32,000 bases of DNA, from positions 1,560,001 to 1,592,000 of the forward strand of contig NC_022093.1 in NCBI RefSeq assembly GCF_000446015.1. Direction: 5' to 3'. This document shows positions 7,607 to 27,936 of the stretch, one piece after another (position 1 is the first letter of the stretch; every line of letters begins with the position of its first letter). The notes under the pieces are model-generated. The model worked only from the letters and a program-made list of their open reading frames with translations, searched no databases and had not been told where the DNA came from. The stretch is from Thermofilum adornatum (GTDB taxonomy: Archaea > Thermoproteota > Thermoprotei > Thermofilales > Thermofilaceae). Made by a program: the position numbers and the translations under genes.

Positions 7607-8091
7607 TGTTGTCAAGCGATAGACACAGGCTGGATGAGATAGAGGAACAGCTTAGACAGCTATACTTAAAGAAGCCTGTCCTGGTTTTTCTCGGAAACCC
7701 TCTGAGGGGCGACGACAAGGTTGGCCTGCTAATAGGTAGGAGATTCATTAGAGTTTCCAGGTATCCCTACCTAGTTATATGTTGGAAGGGTATAGAAAAC
7801 TGCACCTCCAAGATTAAGCAGATGAACAGGGGAAGCCTCCTCATTGTAGATGCCGTCTATGCCAGCCTGGCTCCCGGAACGATAATATTTGCTGGGCAAG
7901 GCGAAGTAGACGAGAACTTTTTGGCTTCAACACATAGTCTTCCCTTGAGCATTTTAAGTGAAGTACTTAAATTGGAGTTTCACGTGCTGGGCATACAGGT
8001 CGAGAATACAGAGATAGACCAGCCTGTGTCCCCAAGCGTGCTTAGAGCTGCTAGAATGGTTTTGCAGTTACTGAAGAAGACATTCGGCTAG
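7606..8091 (+). CDS. Hydrogenase maturation endopeptidase homologue (HycI/HybD family)
   Basis: VLVFLGNPLRGDDKVGLLIG, LLIVDAV, PGTIIF, STHSLPLSIL and LGIQ match the HycI blocks, including the Asp/Asp/His metal ligands. The GTG start at 7606 shares one nt with the upstream TAG (TTG at 7609 is the alternative). Confidence 0.8.
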   Translation: MLSSDRHRLDEIEEQLRQLYLKKPVLVFLGNPLRGDDKVGLLIGRRFIRVSRYPYLVICWKGIENCTSKIKQMNRGSLLIVDAVYASLAPGTIIFAGQGEVDENFLASTHSLPLSILSEVLKLEFHVLGIQVENTEIDQPVSPSVLRAARMVLQLLKKTFG

Positions 8092-8124
8092 TAAAACTGT
8101 AGAGCCTTGGAATTTCATTAATAG

Positions 8125-8979
8125 CTATTTTTGCTCCCTGACTCGACGTTTCTCAGCCAACCAGCCGATATAGCCAGCTATAAGACTGACTAGGAGGGCC
8201 AAGGCAAAGTATAGGGGCTTTGGCTCCGCAGTATAGGATATGACTTTTCCCGAGGGTGTGTCTACCAAGGATGCCCTCGCCTCTACAAGGCCAAATAAGT
8301 CTACTGTCATTGTTCCCTTGTCTTGCAGGATTTCCTTAGCCCTGTCGGCCCGCTGCAGGCTGAACTGGGCTGCGAACATGAGGATCGGCAACACGATGGT
8401 TAGCATTAGGAAGAGAGCTAGTCCTGCTGGTGCCAGTGCTCTTATCTTGCGGGCTCGGCTCATATCTGGACATTTTCCCCTATAGACTATTGCAGCGCCC
8501 TCGTCCCTGATTAACGTATCCCTAGAAGTAGTCAAAGAGAAGAGAACAAGAACTATGTCCCCGCTAGAGCCCACAAAGTTGATTATGCTAGCTTGTATCA
8601 ATGTGTCTCTGAATATTCCACCCGAGAGATATGCTAGGAGCAATGTTATGGGGGAAATTATTAGCGGTGCCAATGCAACTATTACCCATTTGTCTCTTGG
8701 CAGGGGATCCTCTACAGCCACGTATGCACCGTACTTGAATATTCCGGCCTTTATCTTCTTTGCGCCGAGGATCTTCGCAATGACTGCATGTGTCCCCTCG
8801 TGTACAACAACTGTTAGAACTACCGCTAGAACCAATGGGACAAAAGGATAGTTTATAGACTGTAGGGAAGACATACCTGTGAGTGACAACAGGTATAGCC
8901 AGCCAACCCCCATGAAAACAGAGAGTCCTAGGACTGCTCCGAGGTATTCTAAAACGTTGATCCTACACTCAGCAGACAT
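8125..8979 (-). CDS. Polytopic membrane protein with HExxH motif (putative zincin-like peptidase, DUF3267-like)
   Basis: VVHEGTHAVIAKILGAKKIKAGIFKYGAYVAVEDPLPRDKWVIVALAPLIISP contains HExxH inside a TM-flanked segment and resembles DUF3267. An extra C-terminal roughly 110 aa carries two more TM segments. Confidence 0.6.
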   Translation of the reverse strand: MSAECRINVLEYLGAVLGLSVFMGVGWLYLLSLTGMSSLQSINYPFVPLVLAVVLTVVVHEGTHAVIAKILGAKKIKAGIFKYGAYVAVEDPLPRDKWVIVALAPLIISPITLLLAYLSGGIFRDTLIQASIINFVGSSGDIVLVLFSLTTSRDTLIRDEGAAIVYRGKCPDMSRARKIRALAPAGLALFLMLTIVLPILMFAAQFSLQRADRAKEILQDKGTMTVDLFGLVEARASLVDTPSGKVISYTAEPKPLYFALALLVSLIAGYIGWLAEKRRVREQK

Positions 8980-9042
8980 AGACTTGTGCAGAAGGAAGAG
9001 GTATAAAATATAAAGATTTCCTGTGACGGCTTAAAGAATTTT

Positions 9043-9654
9043 CTATGGTCCCAGAGGGAAGAGTACAATTGTTTCTAACAGCCAAGCCACGTGGCAAATC
9101 ATCGAAGCTGACAGGCCCAGTTTTTTAGCTGTGATGGCCATGTAGATGCCTATCGTAAGGGCTCCCAGTAGAAGTGATATGTTGAGGGTCCATATGTGGA
9201 CAAGGGTGTAGTACGATATGCTGAGCATATAGGCATGTATCCTCTTAAGCCTTTCTTCTAAGACTGCTAATTGGCCGCCCCTCCAGTATAGCTCCTCCAT
9301 TGCCCCTATTATTGTTAGGAAAAATGGCAGAAGCGTGGCGTCGCTAGACAAATAGATGCTTGTATAAACGTTTGAGACAGAGTGTTGTAGGTTTAAGGCT
9401 GTAAGGAAGATTTTTCCAAAGACAAATATACCGTAGAGGGGGAACGAGAGAATTAGTCCTGCCAGGGCACTCTTCCACGTGGGTCTCAGATTCCTGTGTA
9501 CTTTTTCCCTGTAGAATAGGAGAGTTAAGGTTCCCAGGAGAAGAGTAGCGAGAAGCATTGCTGTTATGAAGACTTCACGTAAAACTACGAAGACAAGTGG
9601 CCAGAGGAATATAGGTAGAGAAAGATACAATAGTTCAGTATAGCGCTTAAACAT
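9043..9654 (-). CDS. CPBP-family intramembrane glutamic endopeptidase (CAAX protease/Abi-like)
   Basis: About six TM segments. Motifs are MEELYWRG (EExxxR), YYTLVH and CHVAWLL, in the order expected for CPBP proteins. Confidence 0.8.
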   Translation of the reverse strand: MFKRYTELLYLSLPIFLWPLVFVVLREVFITAMLLATLLLGTLTLLFYREKVHRNLRPTWKSALAGLILSFPLYGIFVFGKIFLTALNLQHSVSNVYTSIYLSSDATLLPFFLTIIGAMEELYWRGGQLAVLEERLKRIHAYMLSISYYTLVHIWTLNISLLLGALTIGIYMAITAKKLGLSASMICHVAWLLETIVLFPLGP

Positions 9655-10150: not shown

Positions 10151-11083
10151 GTGGATACTGTCATCCTGGCGCATGGGGACGCTGATGGCGTAACTTCTGC
10201 CGCTATAGCGAAGAGCATCTATAGGGATGCAGAGGTCTACTTCACACATCCCGTCGGTCTGCTCGGAGACCTGAGGGAGTTCGCCCTCGGCAAAGAGCTC
10301 GTAATAATCCAGGACATAGCTATCGACGAGCGGAACCTAGAAGAGTTGCTACAGCTATTAGGCTCCATTGATTCCAGGATAATCTATATTGATCACCACC
10401 CAGACAATGGTGCGGTGGACAGGCTTAAAAGCACAGGAGTGACAGTTGTACACGAGGAGGGGGCTTCTGCGGCGGAGCTGTCCTATAGGTTTCTTAATCC
10501 TCCACGTGAAATGAGCAGGGTAGCAGTCTACGGCGCGATAGGCGACCACATGATGTCTACCCCATGGTACCTTGAAATGCTCGAAACCTGGGACGTCAAG
10601 ACACTCTTCTTCGAAGCTGGTACACTTGTTTTGGCTCTAGAGGCAATAGGGAGAAACTACGAAGAGAAAAGAAAACTTGTCCAGTATCTAGCAGAAAACA
10701 AGCTCCCATCACAAGACCCACAACTAGTTGAAAAGGCAGCCCTACAGAGCAGGCTAAACGAGGAGCTTAGGCTACGCGTAGCGAAAGAGGCCATCGTCCT
10801 GGGAAACGTTGCTTACATAATAGACCCTGGGGGAAGCCTCGGCACAGCTGCTTTCTATGCAAGGGTCGAGAAAAACGTGAAGGTCGGCGTCGCAGTAGAA
10901 AAGAGGAAAGACCTCTGCGTCATGAGCCTTAGGTCAACAAGCCAGGTAGACCTCAACACTTTGCTCAGAAAAATAGCTGTAGAGCTTGGAGGCCACGGCG
11001 GAGGACACCGACAAGCGGCCGGTGCAAGGATACCGTGCTCCAACCTTGGAAGCTTCCTAGAGAAGCTAGCCAAACATGTCTAA
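10151..11083 (+). CDS. DHH/DHHA1-family phosphoesterase (NrnA/RecJ-like core)
   Basis: GTG start. Motifs are ILAHGDADGV (DxD), IYIDHHP (DHH) and GGHGGGHRQAAGA (DHHA1 GGGH). Confidence 0.85.
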   Translation: MDTVILAHGDADGVTSAAIAKSIYRDAEVYFTHPVGLLGDLREFALGKELVIIQDIAIDERNLEELLQLLGSIDSRIIYIDHHPDNGAVDRLKSTGVTVVHEEGASAAELSYRFLNPPREMSRVAVYGAIGDHMMSTPWYLEMLETWDVKTLFFEAGTLVLALEAIGRNYEEKRKLVQYLAENKLPSQDPQLVEKAALQSRLNEELRLRVAKEAIVLGNVAYIIDPGGSLGTAAFYARVEKNVKVGVAVEKRKDLCVMSLRSTSQVDLNTLLRKIAVELGGHGGGHRQAAGARIPCSNLGSFLEKLAKHV

Positions 11084-13980: not shown

Positions 13981-14003
13981 TTTATTATTTTTTATTATTT
14001 TTA
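13981..14003 (+). terminator. Oligo-T tract downstream of the GT4 gene
   Basis: tttattattttttattattttta lies about 35 nt after the stop at 13945. Archaeal termination typically uses T-runs. It overlaps the 3' end of the convergent TrmB gene. Confidence 0.35.
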
Positions 14004-14720
14004 AATCGACTCTGCCATTCCTGGATTCTCGGCGTTTTTCCATATTCTCATAAAGTATTCAGTAGCAGCGCTTGCAATTTCTCTGTCAAGCACGAGTACG
14101 CCGCTCGTTTTTTCATGTAAGCTAAGCAATGAGAAGTGGAGTATAAGCTTCGAGCTGTCAGCAATGATAATATCTAAGGGGGAGTTGAGTTGGGCTTTTC
14201 TCCATTCCCCGTAGCGCGGAGCCTGCATATCTATGTCTATGACTCCTTTTATTTTCCCCTTGGAGACCAGGCTTTTTATATTCTCAAATAGCCTCTCAGA
14301 GGATATGACCATGTATACTTCGCTTGAGTCGGCTAAAAGGTTTCGTATAGCCTTTATGAGAGCTGTGAAATTTCTAATAACATAGATTCCCGTCGCTACA
14401 GATCCAGCTTTTTCGAGAGTCTTTAGTTTCTCTTCGGCCTCTTTAAGCCTTTCCTCTATCTTTCTTTTCTCTATTGCAATGGCTTCTTCGACCTTCTTTG
14501 GAGCATAAACTAAAGGGGACCGTGAAACCACCATTGCCCACCCTCGGGCTTCTAGCTTTTTTAGAGCATCGTAGACCTTTGTGTATGGGATATTAGTTGC
14601 ACTGCTTATTTCTCTGGGTGTAAGTTCGCCCATAGCTAGAAGGGCAGCATAGGCCTTTGCCTCGTAGTCTGAGAAACCTAACTTCCTTAGAACCTCGACA
14701 GCATCTCTGAATTCACTCAT
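14001..14720 (-). CDS. TrmB-family transcriptional regulator
   Basis: AVEVLRKLGFSDYEAKAYAALLAMGELTPREISSATNIPYTKVYDALKKLEARGWAMVV is the canonical TrmB N-terminal wHTH, followed by a coiled-coil linker and a C-terminal domain. It is divergent from the ABC operon. Confidence 0.85.
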   Translation of the reverse strand: MSEFRDAVEVLRKLGFSDYEAKAYAALLAMGELTPREISSATNIPYTKVYDALKKLEARGWAMVVSRSPLVYAPKKVEEAIAIEKRKIEERLKEAEEKLKTLEKAGSVATGIYVIRNFTALIKAIRNLLADSSEVYMVISSERLFENIKSLVSKGKIKGVIDIDMQAPRYGEWRKAQLNSPLDIIIADSSKLILHFSLLSLHEKTSGVLVLDREIASAATEYFMRIWKNAENPGMAESI

Positions 14721-14777
14721 ATTAACTTTTTACCGTGAAAAAAGTATATAAAGATTCTGAAAATTTGATCAGAAGCG

Positions 14778-15701
14778 ATGACCATAGCAATCGAGGCTGT
14801 CAATCTCGTCAAAGTCTTTGGGGGATTTAGGGCAGTTGATGGTGTAAACCTCAAAGTAGAAGAAGGAACGATTTTTGGTCTACTCGGACCAAACGGAGCT
14901 GGCAAATCTACAACAATCAGGCTCATTCTAGGCCTTCTCAAGCCTACTTCTGGCTATGTGAAAGTCTTTGGAATAAGCGTTGAAAAGAACCGCAAAGAAG
15001 TTCTAAAGATAACAGGTTACATGCCTCAGCAATTTAGCTTGTATGAAGACTTGACAGTAGAGGAAAATATGCGTCTCTATGCATCAATGTATGGTATTAA
15101 AAGTAAAGAAGCCAACGAGAGGATACAGCAACTCATGGACGAATTTAATTTAAGAGAAATTAGGAATAGGCTTGCAGGTAAACTGAGTGGAGGGATGAAG
15201 CAGAGATTAGCGTTGGCAGTGGCCCTCATACATAATCCCAAATTACTGGTCGTAGATGAACCAACCGCGGGTGTAGATCCGCCTCTAAGAAGGTATTTCT
15301 GGGAGAAGTTTAGAGAGCTGAAACGCCGAGGAGTAACTATCCTCGTGACTACCCACTACATGGATGAGGCAGAAAACTGTGACAGGATCGCCCTAATGAG
15401 TAGGGGACGCGTAGCCGCTGAGGGTACACCTCTCCAGATCAAGAGACTTGCTTTTGGAGGAGACCTTGTAGAGTTGGTTGTAGAAGGAGACCCCCGTCCA
15501 AAGCTAATCAACCTTGATGCCCAGATTTTAGAATTTGAAAAGGACGGATCCTATAGCAGGCTAAGACTACTTGTGTCTGATGCCTCCGAGAAGCTTGTCC
15601 TTTTGACGAAGAATTTCGAAAAGGAAGGTATCAAGGTGGTTCGAGCTTACGCCGTGTATGTTAGCTTGGAAGACGCCTTCATTAGGCTCACAAGTAGGTG
15701 A
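14778..15701 (+). CDS. ABC transporter ATP-binding protein (ABC-2/DrrA-like)
   Basis: Walker A GPNGAGKST, Q-loop YMPQQ, signature LSGGMKQR, Walker B LLVVDEPT, H-loop TTHYM. Confidence 0.95.
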   Translation: MTIAIEAVNLVKVFGGFRAVDGVNLKVEEGTIFGLLGPNGAGKSTTIRLILGLLKPTSGYVKVFGISVEKNRKEVLKITGYMPQQFSLYEDLTVEENMRLYASMYGIKSKEANERIQQLMDEFNLREIRNRLAGKLSGGMKQRLALAVALIHNPKLLVVDEPTAGVDPPLRRYFWEKFRELKRRGVTILVTTHYMDEAENCDRIALMSRGRVAAEGTPLQIKRLAFGGDLVELVVEGDPRPKLINLDAQILEFEKDGSYSRLRLLVSDASEKLVLLTKNFEKEGIKVVRAYAVYVSLEDAFIRLTSR

Positions 15702-15707
15702 TTATCT

Positions 15708-16808
15708 ATGGGAGCTCTCACTGCGCTGGTTATAAAGGATGTCAAGCAGCTTCTTAGAGACCCAAGGTCTTTAACCATGATTCTCCTCATGCCTCTAGCT
15801 GTAATGGCAATGTTCGTTGCAGGTTACGGCGAAGAAAAAAGCACAATCCCTATAGTCATAGTTAACTTGGATAGGGGCACTGCCTCATGGCAACTGATTG
15901 AGGCTTTGAGGACGAGTAGTACCTTCTCTATTGTTGCTTATGCCTCATCTATTGAGGCCGGTAAAAGCCTTGTACAGAGAGGAGTAGCTTACGCTGCTGT
16001 AGTTATCCCAGAAAACTTCACATATGATGTTTCTAGGGGACGTAGCACGCGGATCATTACAATTCTCGATGCAGCCTATGCAACTGTCTCAGAGCTAGTG
16101 TGGCAGTGGACCGTTGTCTCTACGCAGAGCTTTATGAAAAAAGCGTCAGAGCTTTACGGCACCTTCTATATAGAAGTACAGGAAGAAACAGTTTATGGCC
16201 CAAAAGTTAGCGCTGTGGATAGCTTCACTTCGACAATAATGGGTATTCTCCTTCACCTCGTTCCAATGAGCCTTATAGCTGTTTCAATTAGCCGTGAGAG
16301 AGAACGTAAAACATTTGAACAACTTATTATGGCTCCCATTTCGAGCTGGCACGTTGTTTTTGGGAAGTTTCTCGCATACGCATTGGTGACAGTAGCTGAC
16401 CTAGCCGTTACCCTCGCCTTTGCTGTTTATCTTCTAGGAGTAAGAGTAAAAGGTGACCTCTTCTCGCTTCTAATAGTCTCTTTGCTTATGTTGCTCTGCT
16501 CCCTAGCCATGGGGCTACTTATTTCTGCGGCATCCCGCAACCAGCTTCAAGCATATCAGGCAGCCATTTTCGTCTTTATCCCCTCAATGCTCTTTTCTGG
16601 ATTCTTTAGGCCTGTAGAATTGCTGTCTCCGGACGTTCAACTAGTCAGCAGATTGTTGCCTCTTTACTATTTCTTCAGGGCTTTCAGGAATATCCAGCTT
16701 AGAGGATGGTCGCTTTTTGACGTATCTTGGGACTGTCTAACACTCGGATTATTCACGTTTATCTTCTTGTTAGCTGCTGTTAGAGTTTTAAGATTAAAGG
16801 TGGAATAA
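15708..16808 (+). CDS. ABC-2-type transporter permease
   Basis: One N-terminal TM, a roughly 150-aa extracytoplasmic loop, then five TM segments, which is the typical ABC-2 permease layout. GGTGA lies upstream of the ATG, 6 nt after the ATPase stop. Confidence 0.85.
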   Translation: MGALTALVIKDVKQLLRDPRSLTMILLMPLAVMAMFVAGYGEEKSTIPIVIVNLDRGTASWQLIEALRTSSTFSIVAYASSIEAGKSLVQRGVAYAAVVIPENFTYDVSRGRSTRIITILDAAYATVSELVWQWTVVSTQSFMKKASELYGTFYIEVQEETVYGPKVSAVDSFTSTIMGILLHLVPMSLIAVSISRERERKTFEQLIMAPISSWHVVFGKFLAYALVTVADLAVTLAFAVYLLGVRVKGDLFSLLIVSLLMLLCSLAMGLLISAASRNQLQAYQAAIFVFIPSMLFSGFFRPVELLSPDVQLVSRLLPLYYFFRAFRNIQLRGWSLFDVSWDCLTLGLFTFIFLLAAVRVLRLKVE

Positions 16809-16809
16809 T

Positions 16810-19323
16810 ATGAGATGGAAAACAATTATTATAGGAATAGTGATCTTAATAGTACTCCGCATGCTTATAGCGCATGCTCAGCCAGTTTTCTCGCTGAATG
16901 ATTCCTACTGGCAGGCTCCTCCAATGAGCGGCGTCAATGATACGCTGTACGTTATCCTAGAGCATGAGAGCCTTGGCGAAAATGTATCTCTAAATGCAAC
17001 TCTAACAATACAGGGAGTCGCCCGATCAAACCTCACTGCGAATGCAAGCTATGTTGGGTATCTCGGTCAAGGAGCGCTCCTTCCCCTAAAATTCCAGGTA
17101 AATATTCCCAGCGGGGACCTAGCTTCATATTATCCGGCCCAGCTTCTAATTCAGTGTAACAATACATCTACTATTATCAATTTCAACGTCGGCTTCTCTG
17201 GCGGCCCCTCATTTACTGTAACATCTGATAAACAGGTTTTGTCAAAAGGAGAAAACAACTCAGTAACAATCACAGTCAAGGTGATGGGTGCTCCCGCAAG
17301 AAATGTTGAAGTACGCGTTACTCCTGCAAGCGCCTTTGTTACTGTTCTTGGAGAGTCTCTAAGCCGAAAAGGTCTTGTAAATGTAGGAGAGACCCTTACC
17401 CTGCCAATCAACGTAATGGTTGATAGCTCCGCGGGAGACAGCGTTGCTCTAACCGTCACAATTTCCTCTGAAGATTTTACCAGGACACTAACTACTCAAA
17501 CTGTAACCATTGGCTTTCAGGTTGTGAGAACTCGAGGTCTACCATTCTTTACCCTCACACTAACTCCAAATATTATTTCATCAGGTCAGAGGACACAGGC
17601 ATACCTGTACATTACCAATACTGGTCCTAGCCCTGCAAAAGATGTTAGAGTCTCAGTCTCTGGTCTTTCGCCTGGCCTAGCAGTGCTCTCTGGTTCATCG
17701 GCGTCACTGGGCGACTTTGCTCCAGGAGAAACAAAAGTTCTACCGCTTGTTATAAGGGCTGACAGAACCGCTGTCGGTGTAGCCCAGCTTCAATTATCCT
17801 TTTCCTTTTTCGATGAGAGTGGGAATCCCCATACGAGTATGTTGAATGTTGGCTTCGAAGTTGCAAGGTCTCCCACACCAATTCTATCTATTAGCTTACT
17901 GAACGGGACACTTCCATATGGCTTGAACTCCAAACTCGCAGCATCGATTATCAATATCGGAGATGCAACAGCACAAGACATAACAGTTGACGCTAGTCCG
18001 GGACCAGGCGTGTATGTTTTGGGAACTTCACGTTCACGGATTAAGCAACTAAGCCCAGGAGCAAGCTCCTTGATTACTTTAATGGTCAGATCTACCTCAT
18101 TGGAGGGGTCGGGGACTCTGAGTTTTCGAATACACTACTATGACGATTACGGCAATGCCTATGACGACATAATCCAAGTTTCGTTTAATGTTAGCCGTAG
18201 CGGCGCAGAGATAAAGTTGATCCTGCTTAATGAAACACTTCATCCAAACCAAGTTAACAGAGTTCTTCTCCTGATAAACAACACGGGATCAATAGACGTA
18301 AAGAATCTCACCTTGACACTGACTTCTCAGAGCCCAGACATAGGATCCGTTATTGGGCCCTCAAATATACACCTTGGTTCGCTACCACATGGAAATTCAA
18401 CCCTAGTTACATTCAATGTATTTGTACAGCCAAAAGTATACGGCGCCTTACAGCTCCTTGCAGCCGTTTCTTATACTTTAACAGACGGGAGGTTTGCCAG
18501 AGATGTGTATACTCTCGGCTTTGAAGTGCATGGAGACTGGGAACTAAGTGTCTCCTCTGTCACCACAGTCCCTACGGCAATCTTTCCAGGAGACAACCAG
18601 GTAATGCTTCGGGTTACTTTCGTAAACTCGGGGGACTATATGGCGAAAAATGTACAGGTTGACTTCCTAGGAGACCAATGGGTGAAGCCCAGCTCGGCAA
18701 GTAGCGCAGAGGCCTTTATTCCATACTTGCCTGTAGGACAGACTGTGACAATTAACTTTCTGGCCGATATACGTAGCGATGCACCAATAGGCAATCATAG
18801 ACTTGCTGTGAATGCAAGCGGGCGTACCATATATTTTACGTTAACAGTACTCGAGAAGGCGACTTTCAATATACGAAACGTGACAAGTCTTGAAGTGACA
18901 AGAGGTGGTAGAGGATATCGACTCGTATATGAAGTTGAGAACACGTCAAACATGACTGCCGACGACGTCCGTGTCGAGATGTTTTCACCCTTTGTCACAG
19001 GCACAACCAGCGTTTATATCGGGACTCTATCTGGACACGAGCGCAAGCTTGTAACCTTCGAGGTAGACATAGATCAGACAGCACCTATAGGCGAGCTGCC
19101 CGTAGACTTCAGGGTGTCCTGGACACAGGAAAACAGAAACCTTGATCAATACATTCGCAACTCAATCCATGTAAATCCGCCTAAACCTATCTCTAACCTG
19201 GTCTTCGTGGCCCTGATCCTCATATTCTTGGTTCTACTTGGCTACATGAAACGGGAAACTCTCAAAACATTTATTACACGAGTTGCTAGGGCTAAGGCGG
19301 AATCAACAAAGACTAACTCATAG
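16810..19323 (+). CDS. Large surface protein: signal peptide, about six tandem CARDB/COG1361 'S-layer domain'-like repeats, C-terminal TM anchor
   Basis: Repeats of about 110 aa fall between aa 135 and 790. Each has an NxG...A.(D/N)V.V motif: ITNTGPSPAKDVRVSVSG, INIGDATAQDITVDASP, INNTGSIDVKNLTLTLTS, FVNSGDYMAKNVQVDFLG, VENTSNMTADDVRVEMFS. There are many N-x-S/T sequons, and the C-terminus is LVFVALILIFLVLLGY followed by a basic tail. The start is 1 nt after the permease stop. Confidence 0.8.
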   Translation: MRWKTIIIGIVILIVLRMLIAHAQPVFSLNDSYWQAPPMSGVNDTLYVILEHESLGENVSLNATLTIQGVARSNLTANASYVGYLGQGALLPLKFQVNIPSGDLASYYPAQLLIQCNNTSTIINFNVGFSGGPSFTVTSDKQVLSKGENNSVTITVKVMGAPARNVEVRVTPASAFVTVLGESLSRKGLVNVGETLTLPINVMVDSSAGDSVALTVTISSEDFTRTLTTQTVTIGFQVVRTRGLPFFTLTLTPNIISSGQRTQAYLYITNTGPSPAKDVRVSVSGLSPGLAVLSGSSASLGDFAPGETKVLPLVIRADRTAVGVAQLQLSFSFFDESGNPHTSMLNVGFEVARSPTPILSISLLNGTLPYGLNSKLAASIINIGDATAQDITVDASPGPGVYVLGTSRSRIKQLSPGASSLITLMVRSTSLEGSGTLSFRIHYYDDYGNAYDDIIQVSFNVSRSGAEIKLILLNETLHPNQVNRVLLLINNTGSIDVKNLTLTLTSQSPDIGSVIGPSNIHLGSLPHGNSTLVTFNVFVQPKVYGALQLLAAVSYTLTDGRFARDVYTLGFEVHGDWELSVSSVTTVPTAIFPGDNQVMLRVTFVNSGDYMAKNVQVDFLGDQWVKPSSASSAEAFIPYLPVGQTVTINFLADIRSDAPIGNHRLAVNASGRTIYFTLTVLEKATFNIRNVTSLEVTRGGRGYRLVYEVENTSNMTADDVRVEMFSPFVTGTTSVYIGTLSGHERKLVTFEVDIDQTAPIGELPVDFRVSWTQENRNLDQYIRNSIHVNPPKPISNLVFVALILIFLVLLGYMKRETLKTFITRVARAKAESTKTNS

Positions 19324-19415
19324 AGTAGTCATTATTCTCTTTCCTTGATGAGAAAGCTTTTTTGATGGGAAACGTAGCAATTAGAAAATTTGCATGTTAT
19401 TACTTTTATTCCATG

Positions 19416-19429
19416 AAAAAATATAAATT
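19416..19429 (+). promoter_or_regulatory. TATA-like box for a leaderless transcript starting near GTG 19451
   Basis: aaaaaatataaatt is centred about 29 nt upstream of GTG 19451, which fits archaeal TATA-to-TSS spacing of about 26-27 nt. Confidence 0.45.
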
Positions 19430-19450
19430 GCGTCATATTGTTTTTATCAC

Positions 19451-19969
19451 GTGAGAAAGAGAAGCATCTCATCGGTCTTCTACTTAAAGCCCCGACAAGT
19501 AAAGGCCGTCGTTTATCTTCCAACACTTTTGGGTGTGCGACCCTTTAGCCTTATCATCAACAAAAAAGAGGTCGACAAAATAATTTCCAAGTCGAGGAAA
19601 AGAAAGAAGTGGCTTGCCGGTGGAAAAACCGAGGCGGTCAGTTTAAGCCTCTCCAGTGACGCCCTTAGCCTACTCTTACTCGAGATCCCCGACATCTGTA
19701 AAAAGGCTGATTTCAAGAAGCTTGACGAATATGTTAAGACCTCTTATCGGCATAACACAAAGGTAAAGGAGGAGGTTTATAAGAGAGCGCTTGGGAAAGT
19801 TTTAGGAGACAAAGAGATAGCTGATGCATACCTTGGGGCCTGGCTAAAGGCAAACAACTTTGAGCTACCACCTGACGACCCGGACGCCAGCAAGGTTTCT
19901 AGCCAGTTCTATAAACTCGTCTGGAAGTTTGGAGATAGGTATGTCCTCCAAGATCCTCCATGGTGTTAA
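19451..19969 (+). CDS. Hypothetical 172-aa protein (no family recognised), first gene of a two-gene cassette
   Basis: The ORF has no internal Met, and the GTG start at 19451 is supported by the upstream TATA box. It has a basic patch (SKSRKRKKW) and a helical C-terminal half (EEVYKRALGKVLGDKEIADAYLGAWLKAN). Confidence 0.5.
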   Translation: MRKRSISSVFYLKPRQVKAVVYLPTLLGVRPFSLIINKKEVDKIISKSRKRKKWLAGGKTEAVSLSLSSDALSLLLLEIPDICKKADFKKLDEYVKTSYRHNTKVKEEVYKRALGKVLGDKEIADAYLGAWLKANNFELPPDDPDASKVSSQFYKLVWKFGDRYVLQDPPWC

Positions 19970-21482
19970 AGAAATGTTTTCTCCTAAAAGTCTACCATTG
20001 TCCATAAAAAGTGTGGAAGAATATAGGCGCTACGTTAAAACTTACGGCAAGCTTCCTACAAAGACCTTCAACGATATCGTAGGCCACATAGAGTCGGAAA
20101 ACAGAGGACTGTATTTGTTGTTGATGCCTCCGGGGAGCGGGAAATCCTTCATACTCTTCCAGTTGCTTGATGAATTCACGGCTAAAGGCCCAGTTTTATT
20201 TGAATCATTCAGCAACAGTTCAGAGAAATTTAAAAGCTTCGTAAATACTCTCGAAGTTCGACTAGCCCAATCCATTGCTAACTGGGTTCATACGGTGACG
20301 GGGAAGACAATCGGAGGGAACAACCCAGAACTTCTAACCGTTGCCTGTGCAATTGCGGAAGCCACAGGTGTCCACATACCTCTCTTGTTCCTTCTTGACG
20401 AAGTTCCACTGGAGAGGGAAGAGTCAAAGCTAGAGGAAAATATTCAATATATGGAGACTTTTCTTAGGAAAGCAGATGAACTTGCAGGATTCAAGATCCA
20501 TGTTGTGCTGACCTCCCATGCTATATCTGCTGACTTACAGGAAAAATTTTTTGAGAAGCTAAGGGAAAGGGGAGGGCTTCAAAGATACAATAGAATCCGA
20601 ACATTTAATAAGGTTGAGTTGGCTCCTGGATTCGAGGATGAAGCGAGAGATTTCGTCAAGAAACTTGCTCAAGGCTTTCTGCTGGATCCCTACCTTGTCG
20701 ATACTGCAGTAGAAATGTTAAAGCGAGGCTTTGTCTTTCGCCACGTCATTAGGCTGATTGACGGGGCAAGGCGCAGAGAAGCCTCGGTCGACCTAGAAAG
20801 AGACTTGCATCACGCCCTGGTAGGTGAGCTGGAAAAGAAACTACCACAGGGCAAAGCCAACATTTCAAGCAGACCAGACCTTGTCCTTGTCGACGGGACA
20901 TGTATCGAGGTAAAAGTTAGATTTTCAACTCTAGACATAAACCCGCTACAACATGCTGAATGTCCCAAGAAGCTATACATAATAGTTGCTCCTGAATCCC
21001 AAAATATCCAGGGAGCCCGCGTAATACACAGAAAAGCAGACGTAGCACAGATTGTTTCCGCACTTCAGGCTCTTAAAGCGGAAGACAAGAAGACTTATGA
21101 AGGAGTACTAGGCATCCTTGCACAAACAATCGTCACTTCTATACTTCCCGACATAACCCAGGTGCCTAAGCCACAGCCTGTCCTTGAAGACAACAGAATT
21201 AGGCTCATATGCGCAATACTGTCACAAATGTTTAGAGATTCAAAGACACAGACCCGATCATACATCGCTAAGAGTAGCGTTTTTAAAGCCCTGCTACACG
21301 AGCTAGCTCCAATTACGCCTGCAGAATACAAAGAACAACTTGAAAAATGTATGAAAAATCCCGTAGCTTCATGTGTAGACTTGGCGAGCGACATCAGCGA
21401 GAAAGTTTACGGAAAAACCATATTCAGGATCGAGGGCTCAAAGGTCTACATTGGGAACTTTTGCATTGACCAACAATTCTAA
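19941..21482 (+). CDS. AAA+/P-loop ATPase fused to a PD-(D/E)xK-like nuclease motif and a helical C-terminal extension
   Basis: Walker A is LLLMPPGSGKSFIL (nt 20127-20147) and Walker B is LLFLLDEV (20382-20405). The later segment GELEKKLPQGKANISSRPDLVLVDGTCIEVKVR (about 20871-20918) has a P-D...E-x-K arrangement. The ORF opens at 19860. Plausible starts are ATG 19941 (29-nt overlap with the upstream gene) or ATG 19974 (5 nt after its stop). Confidence 0.7.
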   Translation: MSSKILHGVKEMFSPKSLPLSIKSVEEYRRYVKTYGKLPTKTFNDIVGHIESENRGLYLLLMPPGSGKSFILFQLLDEFTAKGPVLFESFSNSSEKFKSFVNTLEVRLAQSIANWVHTVTGKTIGGNNPELLTVACAIAEATGVHIPLLFLLDEVPLEREESKLEENIQYMETFLRKADELAGFKIHVVLTSHAISADLQEKFFEKLRERGGLQRYNRIRTFNKVELAPGFEDEARDFVKKLAQGFLLDPYLVDTAVEMLKRGFVFRHVIRLIDGARRREASVDLERDLHHALVGELEKKLPQGKANISSRPDLVLVDGTCIEVKVRFSTLDINPLQHAECPKKLYIIVAPESQNIQGARVIHRKADVAQIVSALQALKAEDKKTYEGVLGILAQTIVTSILPDITQVPKPQPVLEDNRIRLICAILSQMFRDSKTQTRSYIAKSSVFKALLHELAPITPAEYKEQLEKCMKNPVASCVDLASDISEKVYGKTIFRIEGSKVYIGNFCIDQQF

Positions 21483-21524
21483 GAGCATAGTTTTTATACA
21501 GCCTAACTAATTTTATCTTAATAA

Positions 21525-21622
21525 TGAGGGTTATTGTCAAGAGCATTGCCATCGAAGATTTTCGCGGCGTTAGACGACTAAAAGAACCACTCGAACTCGG
21601 AAAAATTCAATATTCCCCTTGA
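21525..21622 (+). pseudogene. Frameshifted, truncated N-terminal relic of an ABC/SMC-type (AAA_15/OLD/Rad50-like) ATPase
   Basis: ATG 21525 gives MRVIV. After a 1-nt frame change the reading continues SIAIEDFRGVRRLKEPLELGKIQYSP then TGA at 21620-21622. 'I.I.nFRg...L...l..' is the characteristic first strand of ABC-type ATPases. No Walker A follows. Confidence 0.5.
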
Positions 21623-21725
21623 ATGAGACTGGAACAGCCAGAGCTTAATTTGTCTTTCTCCTAACAAAGAGCTCGGGGATAGCCAAGTAAGAAATTATTT
21701 AAGCAACTCATGTGAGGGTATCACT

Positions 21726-22715
21726 GTGAAGGCCGCCTTATTGTCTGGTCCACGCTTGCTTCGGGTTACGGATGTTCCCATTCCCTCTAGACCGCAGGGC
21801 TGGGCTCTCGTGAAGACTCTCGCGGTGGGAATATGTGGGACAGATAAGGCGTTCTATACTGGGTCTTACCCCTTGTTCAAGAAGCCCCTTATACCTGGAC
21901 ACGAGGTTGTAGGGATAGTTGTCGAGGGGTCTAGAAGCCTAGTTGGCAGGACGGTTGTCTCAGAGATTAACTTCCCGTGCTGGAGCTGTGAGGCGTGCAG
22001 GTCTGGTATGTACACGCATTGCCCGTACAAGAAGACTCTGGGCATAGACTTTGACGGAGGGATGGCCGAGTACTTTGTCGCGCCCGAGTCTGCCCTTCAC
22101 CTGGCCGAAGGCCTGGATACAGTGGTAGCAACAGAGGTTGAGCCTCTCGCCGCGTTGATACATGGGCTCAGGGTTACCCCTGTGGGGCCAGAGGACACTG
22201 TGGCGATAATTGGCACGGGGAACCTTGCATACCTATTGTACCAGCTCCTAAAGCTTAGGGGTGCAAAGCCTGTGATCATCGCGAGGAAGGGGAGCCCCAA
22301 GGCCAGCCTCCTAGTGCTTGAAGGCTTCCGCGTTGCATACGTTGAGGACACTAGCAAGTTGCTCGAGGAGACTTGGATGGGTCTAGGATTTGACGTTGTG
22401 TTCGATGTTTCTGGGGACCCATCAGCTGTAGAATTTGCCATAGACATTGCTAGGCCCCGTGGAACAGTTCACTTGAAGTCTACTCCCGGCTCCAGGAGCA
22501 ACGTCAACTTGACGAGGGCAGTTGTAAAGGAAGTCAAGATTGCTACGAGTAGGTGTGGCGACTTTAGGGACTTCGAGGAGGCAATAAAGCTACTGAAAAG
22601 TGGCGCCGTTAAGCCGAAGATTACCAGCGTGTTTGTAGGCGTTGAAAGTATCCCTGAGGCTTTCGAGAAGGCACTGGAACGTGAACAGTTCAAGGTCGCT
22701 ATTCGTATGATATAA
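21726..22715 (+). CDS. Zinc-dependent medium-chain alcohol/polyol dehydrogenase (MDR family)
   Basis: GICGTD, PGHEVVG, the structural-zinc cluster CWSCEACRSGMYTHC, and the Rossmann motif IIGTGNLA. GTG start. Confidence 0.9.
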   Translation: MKAALLSGPRLLRVTDVPIPSRPQGWALVKTLAVGICGTDKAFYTGSYPLFKKPLIPGHEVVGIVVEGSRSLVGRTVVSEINFPCWSCEACRSGMYTHCPYKKTLGIDFDGGMAEYFVAPESALHLAEGLDTVVATEVEPLAALIHGLRVTPVGPEDTVAIIGTGNLAYLLYQLLKLRGAKPVIIARKGSPKASLLVLEGFRVAYVEDTSKLLEETWMGLGFDVVFDVSGDPSAVEFAIDIARPRGTVHLKSTPGSRSNVNLTRAVVKEVKIATSRCGDFRDFEEAIKLLKSGAVKPKITSVFVGVESIPEAFEKALEREQFKVAIRMI

Positions 22716-25662: not shown

Positions 25663-27033
25663 GTGGCAAGGATAAAAATAGGAGTAATAGGCGCGGGAAG
25701 CGTTGCCTGGAGCTCAAAACTGATACACGACCTTCTACACATGCCTACTCTTTACGGGAGCAAGGTATACCTGATGGACATAAACGAGGAGAGGCTCAGG
25801 CTTCTAAAGGGCTTCGCCGAGAGATATATGTCCGAGATAGGTGGAAACTACGAGTTCATAACTACCACAGACAGATTGGAGGCTATTAGGGACGCGGACA
25901 TAGTAATAAACACTGCGATGTATGGCGGCCACCAGTATTATGAGGAGATGCGCAGGATAAGCGAGAAGCACGGCTATTATCGTGGAGTAAACAGTACAGA
26001 GTGGAACATGGTCAGCGACTACCACACTATCTGGGGCTACTACCAGTGGAAGCTAGCAATGGACATAGCGGGGGAGACAGAGGAATACGCGCCAAACGCC
26101 TGGCTAATACAGCTAGCGAACCCAGTATTCGAGCTGACGACCCTAATTGCCCGTGAAACAAAGGCTAGGGTGATAGGGCTGTGCCACGGACACATGGGAT
26201 ACAGGGAGATAGCCCACACTATTGGCCTGGACCCAGACAAGGTGGACTTCGAGGCCATAGGGTTCAACCACGTCATATGGCTTACTAGGTTCAGGTACAA
26301 CGGGGAGGACGCTTACCCACTCATAGACAAGTGGATAGAGGAGAAGGCTGAAGAGTACTGGCAGGAGTGGAGAAAGACACAGGTAAACCCCTTCGACATC
26401 CAGATGTCGCCGGCGGCAGTAGACATGTATAGGCGGTACGGCTTGTTCCCAGTTGGAGACACTGTGAGGGGAGGCACGTGGATGTACCACTGGAACCTAG
26501 AGACAAAGAAGCAGTGGTTTGGGCCGACCGGCGGCCCAGACAGCGAGATAGGCTGGGAAATATACCTGACCCACGGCGAGGCCTGGCTAGAAGAGCTAGA
26601 AGAGGCTCTCAAAAACAACAGCCCATTGGCGCCGATGTTCCCCAAGGGATTGACGGGCGAAACAATAGTTCCCCTCATAAATTCACTCATACACGACGAG
26701 CCAGGTACATACCAGGTTAATGTGCTAAACATGGGGGCAATCGAGGGGTTGCCAGACAACATCGCCGTAGAGATACCAGCTACCGTAGACGGGAAAGGGG
26801 TGAAGCGCCCACAGGGGCTAAGGCTACCGGGAAGAATAATGAAGCTCGTACTCTGGCCAAGAATGCTCAGGGCAGAAATGGCCATAGAGGGCTTCCTAGA
26901 GGGCGGATTCCAGGTCCTAGTCGACTGGCTAATGCTCGACCCAAGAACAAAAAGCGAGAAACAAGCCGAACAAGCATGGCAAGAAATACTCTCCATCCCC
27001 GGAAACGAAGAAATGAAAAAACACTACAGATAG
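25663..27033 (+). CDS. aglA: Glycoside hydrolase family 4 (NAD+/Mn2+-dependent alpha-glucosidase, AglA-like)
   Basis: KIGVIGAGSVAWS (Rossmann), INTAMYGGH, YYRGV, GLCHGH, AYPLIDKWIEEK and LDPRTKSEKQAEQAWQEILSIPGNEEMKKHY are collinear with Thermotoga maritima AglA as I recall it. Confidence 0.9.
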   Translation: MARIKIGVIGAGSVAWSSKLIHDLLHMPTLYGSKVYLMDINEERLRLLKGFAERYMSEIGGNYEFITTTDRLEAIRDADIVINTAMYGGHQYYEEMRRISEKHGYYRGVNSTEWNMVSDYHTIWGYYQWKLAMDIAGETEEYAPNAWLIQLANPVFELTTLIARETKARVIGLCHGHMGYREIAHTIGLDPDKVDFEAIGFNHVIWLTRFRYNGEDAYPLIDKWIEEKAEEYWQEWRKTQVNPFDIQMSPAAVDMYRRYGLFPVGDTVRGGTWMYHWNLETKKQWFGPTGGPDSEIGWEIYLTHGEAWLEELEEALKNNSPLAPMFPKGLTGETIVPLINSLIHDEPGTYQVNVLNMGAIEGLPDNIAVEIPATVDGKGVKRPQGLRLPGRIMKLVLWPRMLRAEMAIEGFLEGGFQVLVDWLMLDPRTKSEKQAEQAWQEILSIPGNEEMKKHYR

Positions 27034-27206: not shown

Positions 27207-27632
27207 CTACAATGTCTCGGGAACTAATGCCACACCTATATTGGATGCTTGCCTCCTCAGCTTTTCATCGAAGGTCGCTAGTGGAACATTTCTTCGCAGA
27301 GCTACTGAAAGAAAGATTTTGTCGTTGAAGCATGAGAGAGACAGGCCCTCATCTACAAGTGTAGAGATAGCCCAGCGGATCTCATCTAAGCCCTCCCTCA
27401 CCAATACGGACTTCTCGGAGGTAATATACTCGAGTACCTTGTCCCGAGCATCAGCTGTACTCATTTTTAACCCCTTCAGGAACCAAGCATACTCGTAGAT
27501 GACTATTAGGGGGATTATCCACCGGTTTAAACTGTCAAGTATATGGGAAGCCTCCTTGTGGTAGAGAGAATCCTCAAAGGTATCGTAGACAAGGATATTT
27601 GTGTCAATCACCGCCTCCGGCAATGTTTTCAC
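27207..27632 (-). CDS. vapC: VapC toxin (PIN-domain ribonuclease)
   Basis: AVIDTNILVYDTF carries the first catalytic Asp and VPLATFDEKL carries the C-terminal Asp. It is 141 aa with a GTG start and overlaps the upstream antitoxin by 29 nt. Confidence 0.85.
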   Translation of the reverse strand: MKTLPEAVIDTNILVYDTFEDSLYHKEASHILDSLNRWIIPLIVIYEYAWFLKGLKMSTADARDKVLEYITSEKSVLVREGLDEIRWAISTLVDEGLSLSCFNDKIFLSVALRRNVPLATFDEKLRRQASNIGVALVPETL

Positions 27633-27846
27633 CCAGCCCTTTAGCGATTATCCCATCAATTTCTTCCGGAGTAAGGGGTCTTCCAGCTCTAAAAGTCTTC
27701 CTCTTCAGAACTTTTTTCTCCATAATGATTCTCCCCTTTTCATCCACATACATGTCCAGGTAGTCGCCGATCTGCAGTCCCAATGCTTCACGTATCTCTT
27801 TTGGAATCGTTACTTGAAAACTCCTCGTTATTTTACTTCTCTTCAC
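27604..27846 (-). CDS. vapB: VapB antitoxin (AbrB/SpoVT fold)
   Basis: ITRSFQVTIPKEIREALGLQIGDYLDMYVDEKGRIIMEK is a SpoVT/AbrB motif. Confidence 0.85.
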   Translation of the reverse strand: MKRSKITRSFQVTIPKEIREALGLQIGDYLDMYVDEKGRIIMEKKVLKRKTFRAGRPLTPEEIDGIIAKGLGENIAGGGD

Positions 27847-27936
27847 AGTAACTCTTTAAAAATTACTTCTATAAAAACATTTCTACTTTATTCCATAGAA
27901 TCCTCCGAGAATAGAGATTTTTTCCTTACCACCTTG

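Follow-up and report, generated by a model that had tools for sequence, protein, structure and literature searches.

What could a small gene that belongs to no recognisable protein family be doing directly in front of a gene whose product appears to join an ATPase to a nuclease-like domain? This question is raised by a locus of the archaeon Thermofilum adornatum, analysed here within a stretch of 32,000 nucleotides (NCBI RefSeq assembly GCF_000446015.1, contig NC_022093.1, positions 1,560,001 to 1,592,000 of the forward strand), hereafter the window, in whose coordinates positions are given unless another locus is named. A first-pass annotation, made from the letters of the DNA, had proposed a leaderless two-gene cassette with a possible part in defence. 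The analysis shows that the two genes, here called A and B, make up an operon that is conserved, under selection, dispensable and very rare. There is, in our estimate, about an even chance that A-B, as an accessory operon of hyperthermophilic Thermoproteota, is self-contained and works as a nucleic-acid-targeting immunity or conflict module.

A conserved and very rare two-gene operon

Both open reading frames are as they were first described, and both lie on the plus strand. Gene A (19451..19969) opens with GTG and encodes 172 residues, and gene B (19974..21482), which comes right after it, encodes a 502-residue ATPase-nuclease-like fusion. Three starts are available to B in the window (TTG at 19860, ATG at 19941 and ATG at 19974), all of them leading to the end at 21482, and the alignment of homologues singles out the ATG at 19974 as the conserved one. 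Between the two arrangements that the first-pass annotation had left standing, a B that overlaps A or a B that starts just after its stop, the second is retained, as the overlapping starts are not the conserved one. Four bases (19970-19973) thus separate the stop of A from the ATG of B, and in the other lineages whose junctions were read, B starts 1-8 nucleotides (nt) past the stop of A.

Upstream of A, an A/T-rich, TATA-like box, AAAAAATATAAATT (19416..19429, plus strand), contains TATAAA at 19422-19427, with its centre about 26 nt 5' of the GTG. The spacing read off at first is therefore borne out, and an A/T-rich box stands at a matching distance from the start of A in six lineages. Both the spacing and its conservation fit a leaderless archaeal promoter. 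Scans for sigma-70 promoters and intrinsic terminators stayed at or below shuffle expectation, with methods that are not applicable to archaea. For B, a Shine-Dalgarno-like GGTG (19962..19965, plus strand), placed 8 nt before the ATG and within the conserved Trp-Cys codons that close A, may be the translation signal; the codons TGGTG(T/C) are found in most lineages, and A and B are, judging from these junctions, translationally coupled.

The family is small. Among 5.8 billion clusters, a word-indexed search returned seven relatives of B and three of A, and a profile built from 13 diverse A sequences raised the latter to 15 clusters in the same collection. An exhaustive HMMER search with a profile of B gave 14 matches among 1.84 billion representatives, with eight full-length clusters, one of which (P0022) is distant at E 1e-4; as far as they are assigned, the clusters of B all belong to Thermoproteota. 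Across 185,579 species genomes (one genome each, by pattern scan and tblastn), two loci were found, one in a metagenome-assembled genome (MAG) of Thermofilales and one in a MAG of Thermoproteus, and JGI metagenomes added 20 loci. The viral contigs of IMG/VR, the phages of INPHARED and the plasmids of PLSDB yielded no relatives of A-B, and a viral or plasmid origin was rejected on this ground.

The pair is syntenic elsewhere, as the early proposal would have it. By tblastn, a homologue of A lies directly 5' of B in every one of the 33 fetched loci that hold B with upstream DNA (33/33), and the same holds for the more distant locus L036. The identities of the two proteins fall in step (77, 54, 56 and 37% for A against 78, 53, 51 and 34% for B), and, since A and B diverge together, the pair and not the single gene is therefore the unit. 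Over pairs of 99% to about 60% identity, the ratio of nonsynonymous to synonymous substitution rates (dN/dS; pairwise Nei-Gojobori) is 0.07-0.27 for A and 0.08-0.23 for B, reaching 0.38 for A in one comparison between other lineages. A and B are real genes under purifying selection.

The pair is nevertheless dispensable. In the sister strain L035, a deletion of 1,696 bp, corresponding to 19835-21530 of the window, has taken away B entirely, together with the end of A and the first part of the gene relic that follows B. Its junction (6849-6850 of L035) shows a 2-nt microhomology (TT), and residues 1-128 of A are now fused to the relic in a protein of 157 residues (P0010).

The domains of B and the nature of A

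Residues 1-262 of B (19974..20759, plus strand) make up an AAA+/STAND-like P-loop module with a putative helical lid, recognised from Pfam matches, weak Foldseek matches and invariant residues. The Walker A motif PPGSGKS (residues 52-58, 20127-20147) and the Walker B motif LLFLLDEV (residues 137-144, 20382-20405) are intact, as had been seen from the start, and their key residues, G54, G56 and K57 in the former and D142 and E143 in the latter, are invariant in an alignment of 13 sequences that reaches down to 22% identity. Family-wide the two read PPGSGK[ST] and LLLDE, which agrees with the general P-loop pattern of GxxGxGK[ST] plus hhhhDE. H182 and R256, also invariant in the 13 sequences, would be candidates for sensor and arginine residues.

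In a Pfam scan of these 13 members, AAA_22 was matched by 13, at sub-threshold scores, AAA_16 by 10 and PF01637 (Arch_ATPase) by six, one of which (P0015) passes the gathering cutoff of PF01637 (37.3 against 33.2 bits, E 3.4e-9) with the five others below it. B of the window itself has sub-threshold P-loop matches only and none to PF01637 at E up to 1, the homologue in L036 carries a PF01637 annotation, and B members also match the nSTAND3, nSTAND_NTPase5, NPHP3_N and NACHT models weakly. The Pfam matches across all members, together with the annotation in L036, place the ATPase of B as a probable divergent branch of the Arch_ATPase/ORC-like AAA+ group (AAA_22/AAA_16/PF01637). A full-length AlphaFold2 (AF2) model of B is of moderate quality (predicted local distance difference test, pLDDT, 67.7), and because the model is mediocre a Foldseek search with it gave weak AAA+ matches only (ORC4 at E 7e-4, RAD17 and Vps4 as the best, with template-modelling (TM) scores of about 0.24). 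Sequence searches of the PDB with profiles of full-length B and of its nuclease-like domain returned nothing meaningful.

A housekeeping paralogue of Orc/Cdc6, which had been named at the outset as the identity most damaging to a defence role, is not what these results describe: the Pfam scan of the 13 members found no Cdc6_C, two of 185,579 species genomes hold the family, and L035 has deleted it. The layout had also been set apart from the common archaeal combination of Arch_ATPase with DUF234. This distinction stands in that none of the 13 members matches PF03008; it falls in that the ATPase is related to PF01637 and the architecture is of the same kind. The usual Walker A of COG1672 (GxRRxGKT) differs from the PPGSGK of B.

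Next to the ATPase lies a PD-(D/E)xK-like domain resembling that of the Holliday-junction resolvase Hjc (residues 266-356, 20769..21041, plus strand), its limits set by invariant columns, an AF2 model and hhalign. The signature that had first drawn attention, E275...P301-D302-x9-E312-V-K314, is present in B of the window, with E275 at 20796-20798 and P301-D302...E312-V-K314 at 20874-20915. D302 and K314 are invariant in the 13 sequences down to 22% identity, E275 is found in most members, and E312 is changed once only, to D in P0015 (CLDIK), which would be the expected substitution for a (D/E)xK motif. Conserved besides are C310, Q326, H327, C330 and H352. A model of residues 266-398 alone, made from 12 sequences, reached a pLDDT of 89.7 and a predicted TM-score of 0.85, with the topology helix, four strands, helix. 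It runs from the long helix of E275 through a short strand after P301-D302, the strand of E312-V-K314 and a Q-H-x-x-C loop to two further strands and two helices. D302 sits just ahead of strand 2 and E312-x-K314 within strand 3, so that the catalytic residues of motifs I-III occupy their canonical helix and strand positions in the model.

The stretch PDLVLVDGTCIEVKV of B resembles VDLVAGNGKKYLCIEVKV of Pyrococcus Hjc, the sequence used for the latter being identical to PDB entry 1GEF. Aligned by hhalign against 1GEF alone, the domain gave a probability (Prob) of 38 at E 3.4e-4 with E...D...ExK in register, and against an alignment of four Hjc/Hje sequences a Prob of 46 at E 2.1e-4, again with the catalytic residues in register. 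Two comparisons with unrelated controls remained at Prob 0.1-0.2 and E 0.35-0.53.

What follows the nuclease core had been described as a helical tail of roughly 180 residues; helices are indeed there, but the tail is about 145 residues long and consists of two long helices, a Pro-rich linker modelled at low confidence and a compact domain with hairpins. This Cys-rich C-terminal domain (residues 407-502, 21192..21479, plus strand), recognised from the full-length model and the conservation of its cysteines, is compact over residues 407-495, where it is helical with two small hairpins at a pLDDT of 86-94. It may be a winged-helix-like DNA-binding domain or else a metal or disulfide domain. Six cysteines of B are conserved: C310, C330 and, in the compact domain, C413, C459 and C497 do not vary across the 13 sequences, and C467, also in the compact domain, hardly does. 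C310 stands two residues ahead of the catalytic E312, and C330 is part of the Q-H-x-x-C loop near the nearly invariant H352. Disulfides are typical of the cytoplasm of hyperthermophiles, and the cysteines of B may form either these or a metal site.

Protein A had been called a protein of no recognisable family, and it remains one: Pfam, PADLOC, NCBIfam and the PDB, a profile search of the last included, gave no family match, which suggests that A founds a new protein family. It is basic, with an isoelectric point (pI) of 9.7 that rises to 10.9 in its N-terminal half, and its invariant residues include Y11, R15, W54, a DDPDA motif (142-146) and a C-terminal PPW. An N-terminal stretch, YLP..LG.RP, looked like that of AbrB/MazE-type antitoxins; this candidate identity was dropped, as hhalign against the locus's own MazE gave a Prob of 0.3.

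Genomic setting and competing explanations

The neighbours of A-B differ from lineage to lineage. In L013, L019 and L020, an AriA/NsnB-like AAA_15/21 ATPase and a gene of 126 codons lie directly upstream of the pair. In a Thermoproteus MAG (L014, 681-4226), A-B lies about 1 kb downstream of an McrB-like AAA_5 protein of 464 residues (PDB 6ut6, E 2e-12) and of a 397-residue protein, which is a possible analogue of McrC. A ResIII helicase and ThyX are found near A-B in L031, a resolvase fragment adjoins it on the upstream side in L036, and in L001, L022, L029 and L032 the pair sits among unannotated or metabolic genes. The 126-residue protein of L013, the 397-residue protein of L014 and a 932-residue protein of L031 matched no family and no PDB entry. 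A-B thus often has defence-type genes beside it, and the AriA/NsnB-like and McrB-like neighbours, along with an OLD/AbiL/AriA-like ABC ATPase gene pair that is intact downstream of B in L015, L003 and L018, fit a defence island.

Several side observations belong to the same neighbourhoods. The ATPase of L013 (446 residues; gene pair at 7686-9387) matches the PADLOC models NsnB, AriA and PD-T4-4_A, and its position gives a second, independent link of A-B to the AAA_15/AAA_21 class of ATPases. L014 has a GP88-family gene on the opposite strand. In the window, predicted genes for a PIN-domain (VapC-like) protein and a MazE/AbrB-type antitoxin lie about 6 kb downstream of the pair (~27207-27850, minus strand), identified by synteny with 18517-19156 of L004, where they are annotated by Pfam.

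Composition says little on the origin of the pair, since the deviation of B is small and the upstream genes are alike. The G+C content of B (GC 0.443) and that of its third codon positions (GC3 0.443) lie 1.1-1.4 standard deviations below those of the other genes of the window (0.483 +/- 0.035 and 0.530 +/- 0.063). A lies at the average, and the low values of B recur in the four genes upstream of the pair (14001-19323). The early remark that the cassette is richer in A/T than its neighbours therefore applies to B, modestly, and not to A, nor does it separate B from those four genes; the A/T-rich non-coding DNA described on both sides is real (GC 0.28 and 0.39) and like other intergenic DNA here. 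Composition as a sign of recent transfer was rejected for these reasons. Borders of a mobile element were sought around 18900-22000 and likewise given up, the direct and inverted repeats there being short pairs at chance level. The window gave no tRNA or Rfam matches, and no integrase lies nearby.

How might such a pair work? ATP binding and hydrolysis would switch or oligomerise B; the C-terminal domain of B, the very basic N-terminal half of A or both would bind DNA; the Hjc-like domain of B could then cut foreign or branched DNA; and A might couple recognition to cutting, be it as adaptor, as sensor or as brake. By association with its defence-type neighbours, a defence role for A-B is plausible. 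A sharper version, namely that A-B is an undescribed, self-sufficient antiviral or anti-plasmid system of hyperthermophilic Thermoproteota, outside the current defence catalogues, in which A gates an ATP-driven, Hjc-like nuclease B that cuts junctions or DNA, is put forward tentatively and is, as a whole, somewhat improbable.

A number of results weigh against an immunity or conflict module of this kind. Several lineages have neighbours of a non-defence nature (XPB/Bax1, ThyX, glycosyltransferases and PEMT). PADLOC-DB v2 has no match for A or B of the window at E up to 1, nor for A and B of L003 or the A homologue of L011 at E up to 0.1. The part given to A rests entirely on inference. As to the nuclease-like domain, its model has no counterpart of the helix that in the canonical core usually lies between strand 3 and strand 4, and Foldseek found no significant match for it in the PDB (the best being MspJI, E 0.12) or in BFVD (best E 0.04), with TM-scores of 0.4 or less and of about 0.2-0.3 for nucleases. 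Hjc is not among its top matches, although PD-(D/E)xK nucleases do recur among the weak ones (MspJI, Bax1, NhoI, XPF-ERCC1, DdmD, T7 endonuclease I-like, RecB-like and a resolvase). None of the 13 members matches PF01870, PF03008 or another PDDEXK family of Pfam at E up to 1, and B does not belong to Hjc/Hje in the sense of a PF01870, whole-domain match and a stand-alone dimer, its domain being embedded in a 502-residue ATPase. With its 20-44 columns the hhalign match is short, and the choice of Hjc was made post hoc, after the likeness of the motifs had been noticed; the match is therefore support and not proof. The structural part of the early proposal thus holds by half, in that a model with a pLDDT near 90 places the catalytic residues canonically and no significant Foldseek match accompanies it, and because of the latter the nuclease fold of the central domain of B is supported but not proven.

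The pair could instead be a toxin-antitoxin or addiction module, with B as a DNA-cutting toxin and A as its neutraliser and autorepressor, so that selfish persistence would stand in place of protection or beside it. We consider this unlikely. It would account for a small basic protein that is encoded first and coupled to a larger enzyme, for the patchy and rare distribution and for a PIN/MazE pair in the same region. It also suits L035, where the deletion that removed B took the C-terminal part of A as well, as it should if B cannot be kept without A, although A was not lost alone. However, A resembles neither AbrB/MazE-type antitoxins nor any other family, 172 residues are many for an antitoxin, and ATP-dependent toxins of 500 residues are unusual. 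Moreover, A appears frameshifted in L031 with B intact, which a lethal toxin would not tolerate, unless the frameshift is a sequencing error. The homologue in question (9449-9950 of L031) is apparently split over two frames with B intact downstream; it reflects a sequencing error or else is a natural pseudogene of A, and the choice bears on this reading.

Improbable to a like degree is a chromosomal factor for DNA transactions, in which an Arch_ATPase/Orc-like B with its Hjc-like resolvase domain would process branched DNA during repair, recombination or the restart of replication, A being its DNA-binding cofactor, and would have no part in immunity. The likeness of the motif to Holliday-junction resolvases, ORC4 and RAD17 among the best Foldseek matches of the full model, and the XPB/Bax1 and ThyX neighbours in L001 and L031 would all agree with it. 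One would expect a general repair factor to occur widely and at a stable position, whereas this family is extremely rare and patchy, takes different positions in different lineages and has been deleted in a natural strain.

A further explanation turns on what follows B. The first-pass annotation had seen there the relic of an ABC-type ATPase gene, and it is real. The relic of gene C (21524..21622, plus strand) retains 32 codons, encodes MRVIVKSIAIEDFRGVRRLKEPLELGKIQYSP* and corresponds to the N-terminus of an AAA_15/AAA_21/DUF2813 ABC-type ATPase: by tblastn it is 50% identical to residues 3-28 of C in L003, and by blastn it is collinear with the beginning of intact C in L015, at 98% identity up to position 21621. 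Intact C comes directly after B in L003, L018 and L015, the last having a B that is 99% identical to that of the window. It matches AAA_21 (1.6e-14), AAA_15 (3e-10) and DUF2813, along with the PADLOC models PDC-M38A, AriA, AbiLi, PtuA, GajA and Old, and through homology to it the relic belongs with the ABC ATPases of OLD/AbiL/AriA type. Its end is overlapped by gene D, of 203 residues, which matched no family and no PDB entry. The intact pair lies at 11553-13237 in L015 and at 7721-9327 in L003, with a C of 332-358 residues. Where L015 has 1570 bp that hold C and D, the window has 43 bp by blastn (21622-21664), and a recent deletion has left nothing of C-D in the window but the 32-codon stub. 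L004, L006 and L007 keep a larger wreck, with residues 1-51 and 296-332 of C and a D split over two frames, and fragments of C follow A-B in L001 and L002 as well. A box TTTTTATA (21491..21498, plus strand), 26-33 nt before the ATG of the relic and identical upstream of intact C in L015, would be the leftover promoter of C-D; its oligo-T may also terminate A-B. As C has this box of its own, C-D looks like a separate unit, possibly an archaeal system of AbiL/PARIS-like kind that is still uncharacterised.

Could A, B, C and D nevertheless form one four-gene system, of which the window, lacking C-D, keeps a crippled remnant heading to decay? The intact order A-B-C-D in L015, L003 and L018, the fragments of C after A-B in L001 and L002, and the different AAA_15/21 ATPase with its 126-residue partner upstream in L013, L019 and L020, which makes two independent associations, speak for such a system. 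We nonetheless find it quite unlikely: five or more other lineages hold A-B with no such ATPase in their flanks; C has its TATA-like box and a gap of 41-44 nt after B; C-D resembles the stand-alone two-gene layout of AbiL/PARIS type; and A and B are intact, at a dN/dS of about 0.1, where C-D has decayed or been deleted, with few substitutions so far.

The least probable explanation, by a small margin, is that A-B is leftover cargo of an integrated mobile element, for instance an Orc/Cdc6-like initiator that carries a nicking or cutting domain, together with an accessory protein for the replication or maintenance of the element, for although an AAA+ module with a helical, winged-helix-like C-terminal domain, the resolvase fragment upstream in L036, the GP88-family gene in L014 and the varying contexts of insertion would suit it, IMG/VR, INPHARED and PLSDB hold no relatives, no flanking repeats stand out, neither a tRNA gene nor an integrase lies nearby in the window, and only A and B are conserved between loci.

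The surroundings of the immunity or conflict module that we favour are themselves unstable. The locus is not part of a conserved core genome, at least three independent strain-level deletions having occurred in the region; besides those described, the sister strains L004-L009 lack the DNA that corresponds to 14219-19260, which is present in the window and in L035. This block of 5 kb encodes a regulator of the TrmB family (14001-14720, minus strand), the ATPase of an ABC-2 transporter (14778-15701), its permease (15708-16808) and an 837-residue surface-type protein with CARDB and NPCBM_assoc domains (16810-19323), and its genes share the low GC3 of B (0.42-0.45). In L003 (4427-11614), a DHH/DHHA1 gene stands directly before A, and a GH4 glycosidase gene follows D past one further gene. 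In the window (from 10151-11083 to 25663-27033), about 8 kb have been added before A, with genes for UbiA, a glycosyltransferase, the TrmB regulator, the ABC-2 transporter and the CARDB protein, and about 4 kb on the other side, with an alcohol dehydrogenase, a 273-residue membrane protein, an amino-acid permease and a 177-residue protein. Given the deletions among sister strains and the wrecks of genes, the interval between the DHH phosphoesterase and the GH4 glycosidase is, in Thermofilum, a hotspot where genes are gained and lost.

Significance and comparison with known systems

Archaeal immunity beyond CRISPR and restriction is poorly charted, and catalogues based on bacteria miss systems that are specific to a lineage. 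A-B is a minimal candidate for such a system: two genes, intact motifs, purifying selection, natural variants of presence and absence, and neighbours of defence type. Should the proposal hold, it would offer an archaeal example of the design that couples an ATPase switch to a nuclease, and a function for one branch of the large uncharacterised class of Arch_ATPase/PD-(D/E)xK proteins; should it fail, A-B would be an ordinary rare accessory pair. In either case the locus records how rapidly near-identical Thermofilum strains gain and lose genes of defence type.

The domain logic of A-B is familiar, while the nuclease-like domain, the C-terminal domain and the partner A are unclassified. The comparison can begin with the STAND and AAA+ immune NTPases that carry nuclease effectors, Avs proteins with Mrr- or Cap4-type nuclease domains being one example. 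B resembles them in a P-loop ATPase that may act as a switch, in its fusion to a putative effector of PD-(D/E)xK type and in a setting like that of a defence island. B, however, is much smaller, has no sensor domain of the repeat type and is always encoded together with a small protein. Fusions of NACHT with Mrr have been noted (PMC1913061).

Hjc and Hje (PDB 1GEF, 2WCW, 1OB8 and 4TKD) share with the nuclease-like domain an ER(E/D)L helix, followed in register by (P/V)D, 9-12 residues and (L/C)IEVK. Hjc, though, is a free-standing homodimer of about 125-145 residues, whereas the domain of B is embedded in an ATPase and has a loop with a conserved Q-H-x-x-C in place of the second core helix. 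For C, as the intact form of the relic and not for A-B, the likeness is to the ABC ATPase modules AbiL, PARIS (AriA-AriB), Septu (PtuA) and OLD, and C is followed by a small, overlapping partner gene; C-D differs from these modules in its 203-residue D, which has no family, and only 32 codons of C are left in the window.

The closest architectures are those in which an AAA+ module related to PF01637 is fused to a PD-(D/E)XK domain, as in DUF1703 (PMC1913061) and DUF234/COG1672 (PMC3424549), for which these papers know of no function. DUF1703 (PDDEXK_9), the AAA+ part of which has been linked to PF01637 (PMC1913061), follows the four-part layout proposed for B, in which an AAA+ domain and its lid are joined through a helical linker to a domain of restriction-endonuclease-like type; no sequence match to B was detected. 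It differs in an arginine-rich Walker A, in being mostly bacterial and in a nuclease domain that is C-terminal, where that of B is internal with another domain after it. COG1672 (PF01637 plus PF03008) resembles B, with its PD-(D/E)xK-like domain, in placing the ATPase before a domain of PD-(D/E)XK type within one chain of about 450-500 residues (PMC3424549). B departs from it in that PF03008 is missing from the 13 members at E up to 1, in its additional Cys-rich C-terminal domain, in its obligate upstream partner A of what would be a new family, and in its tiny distribution, confined to Thermoproteota.

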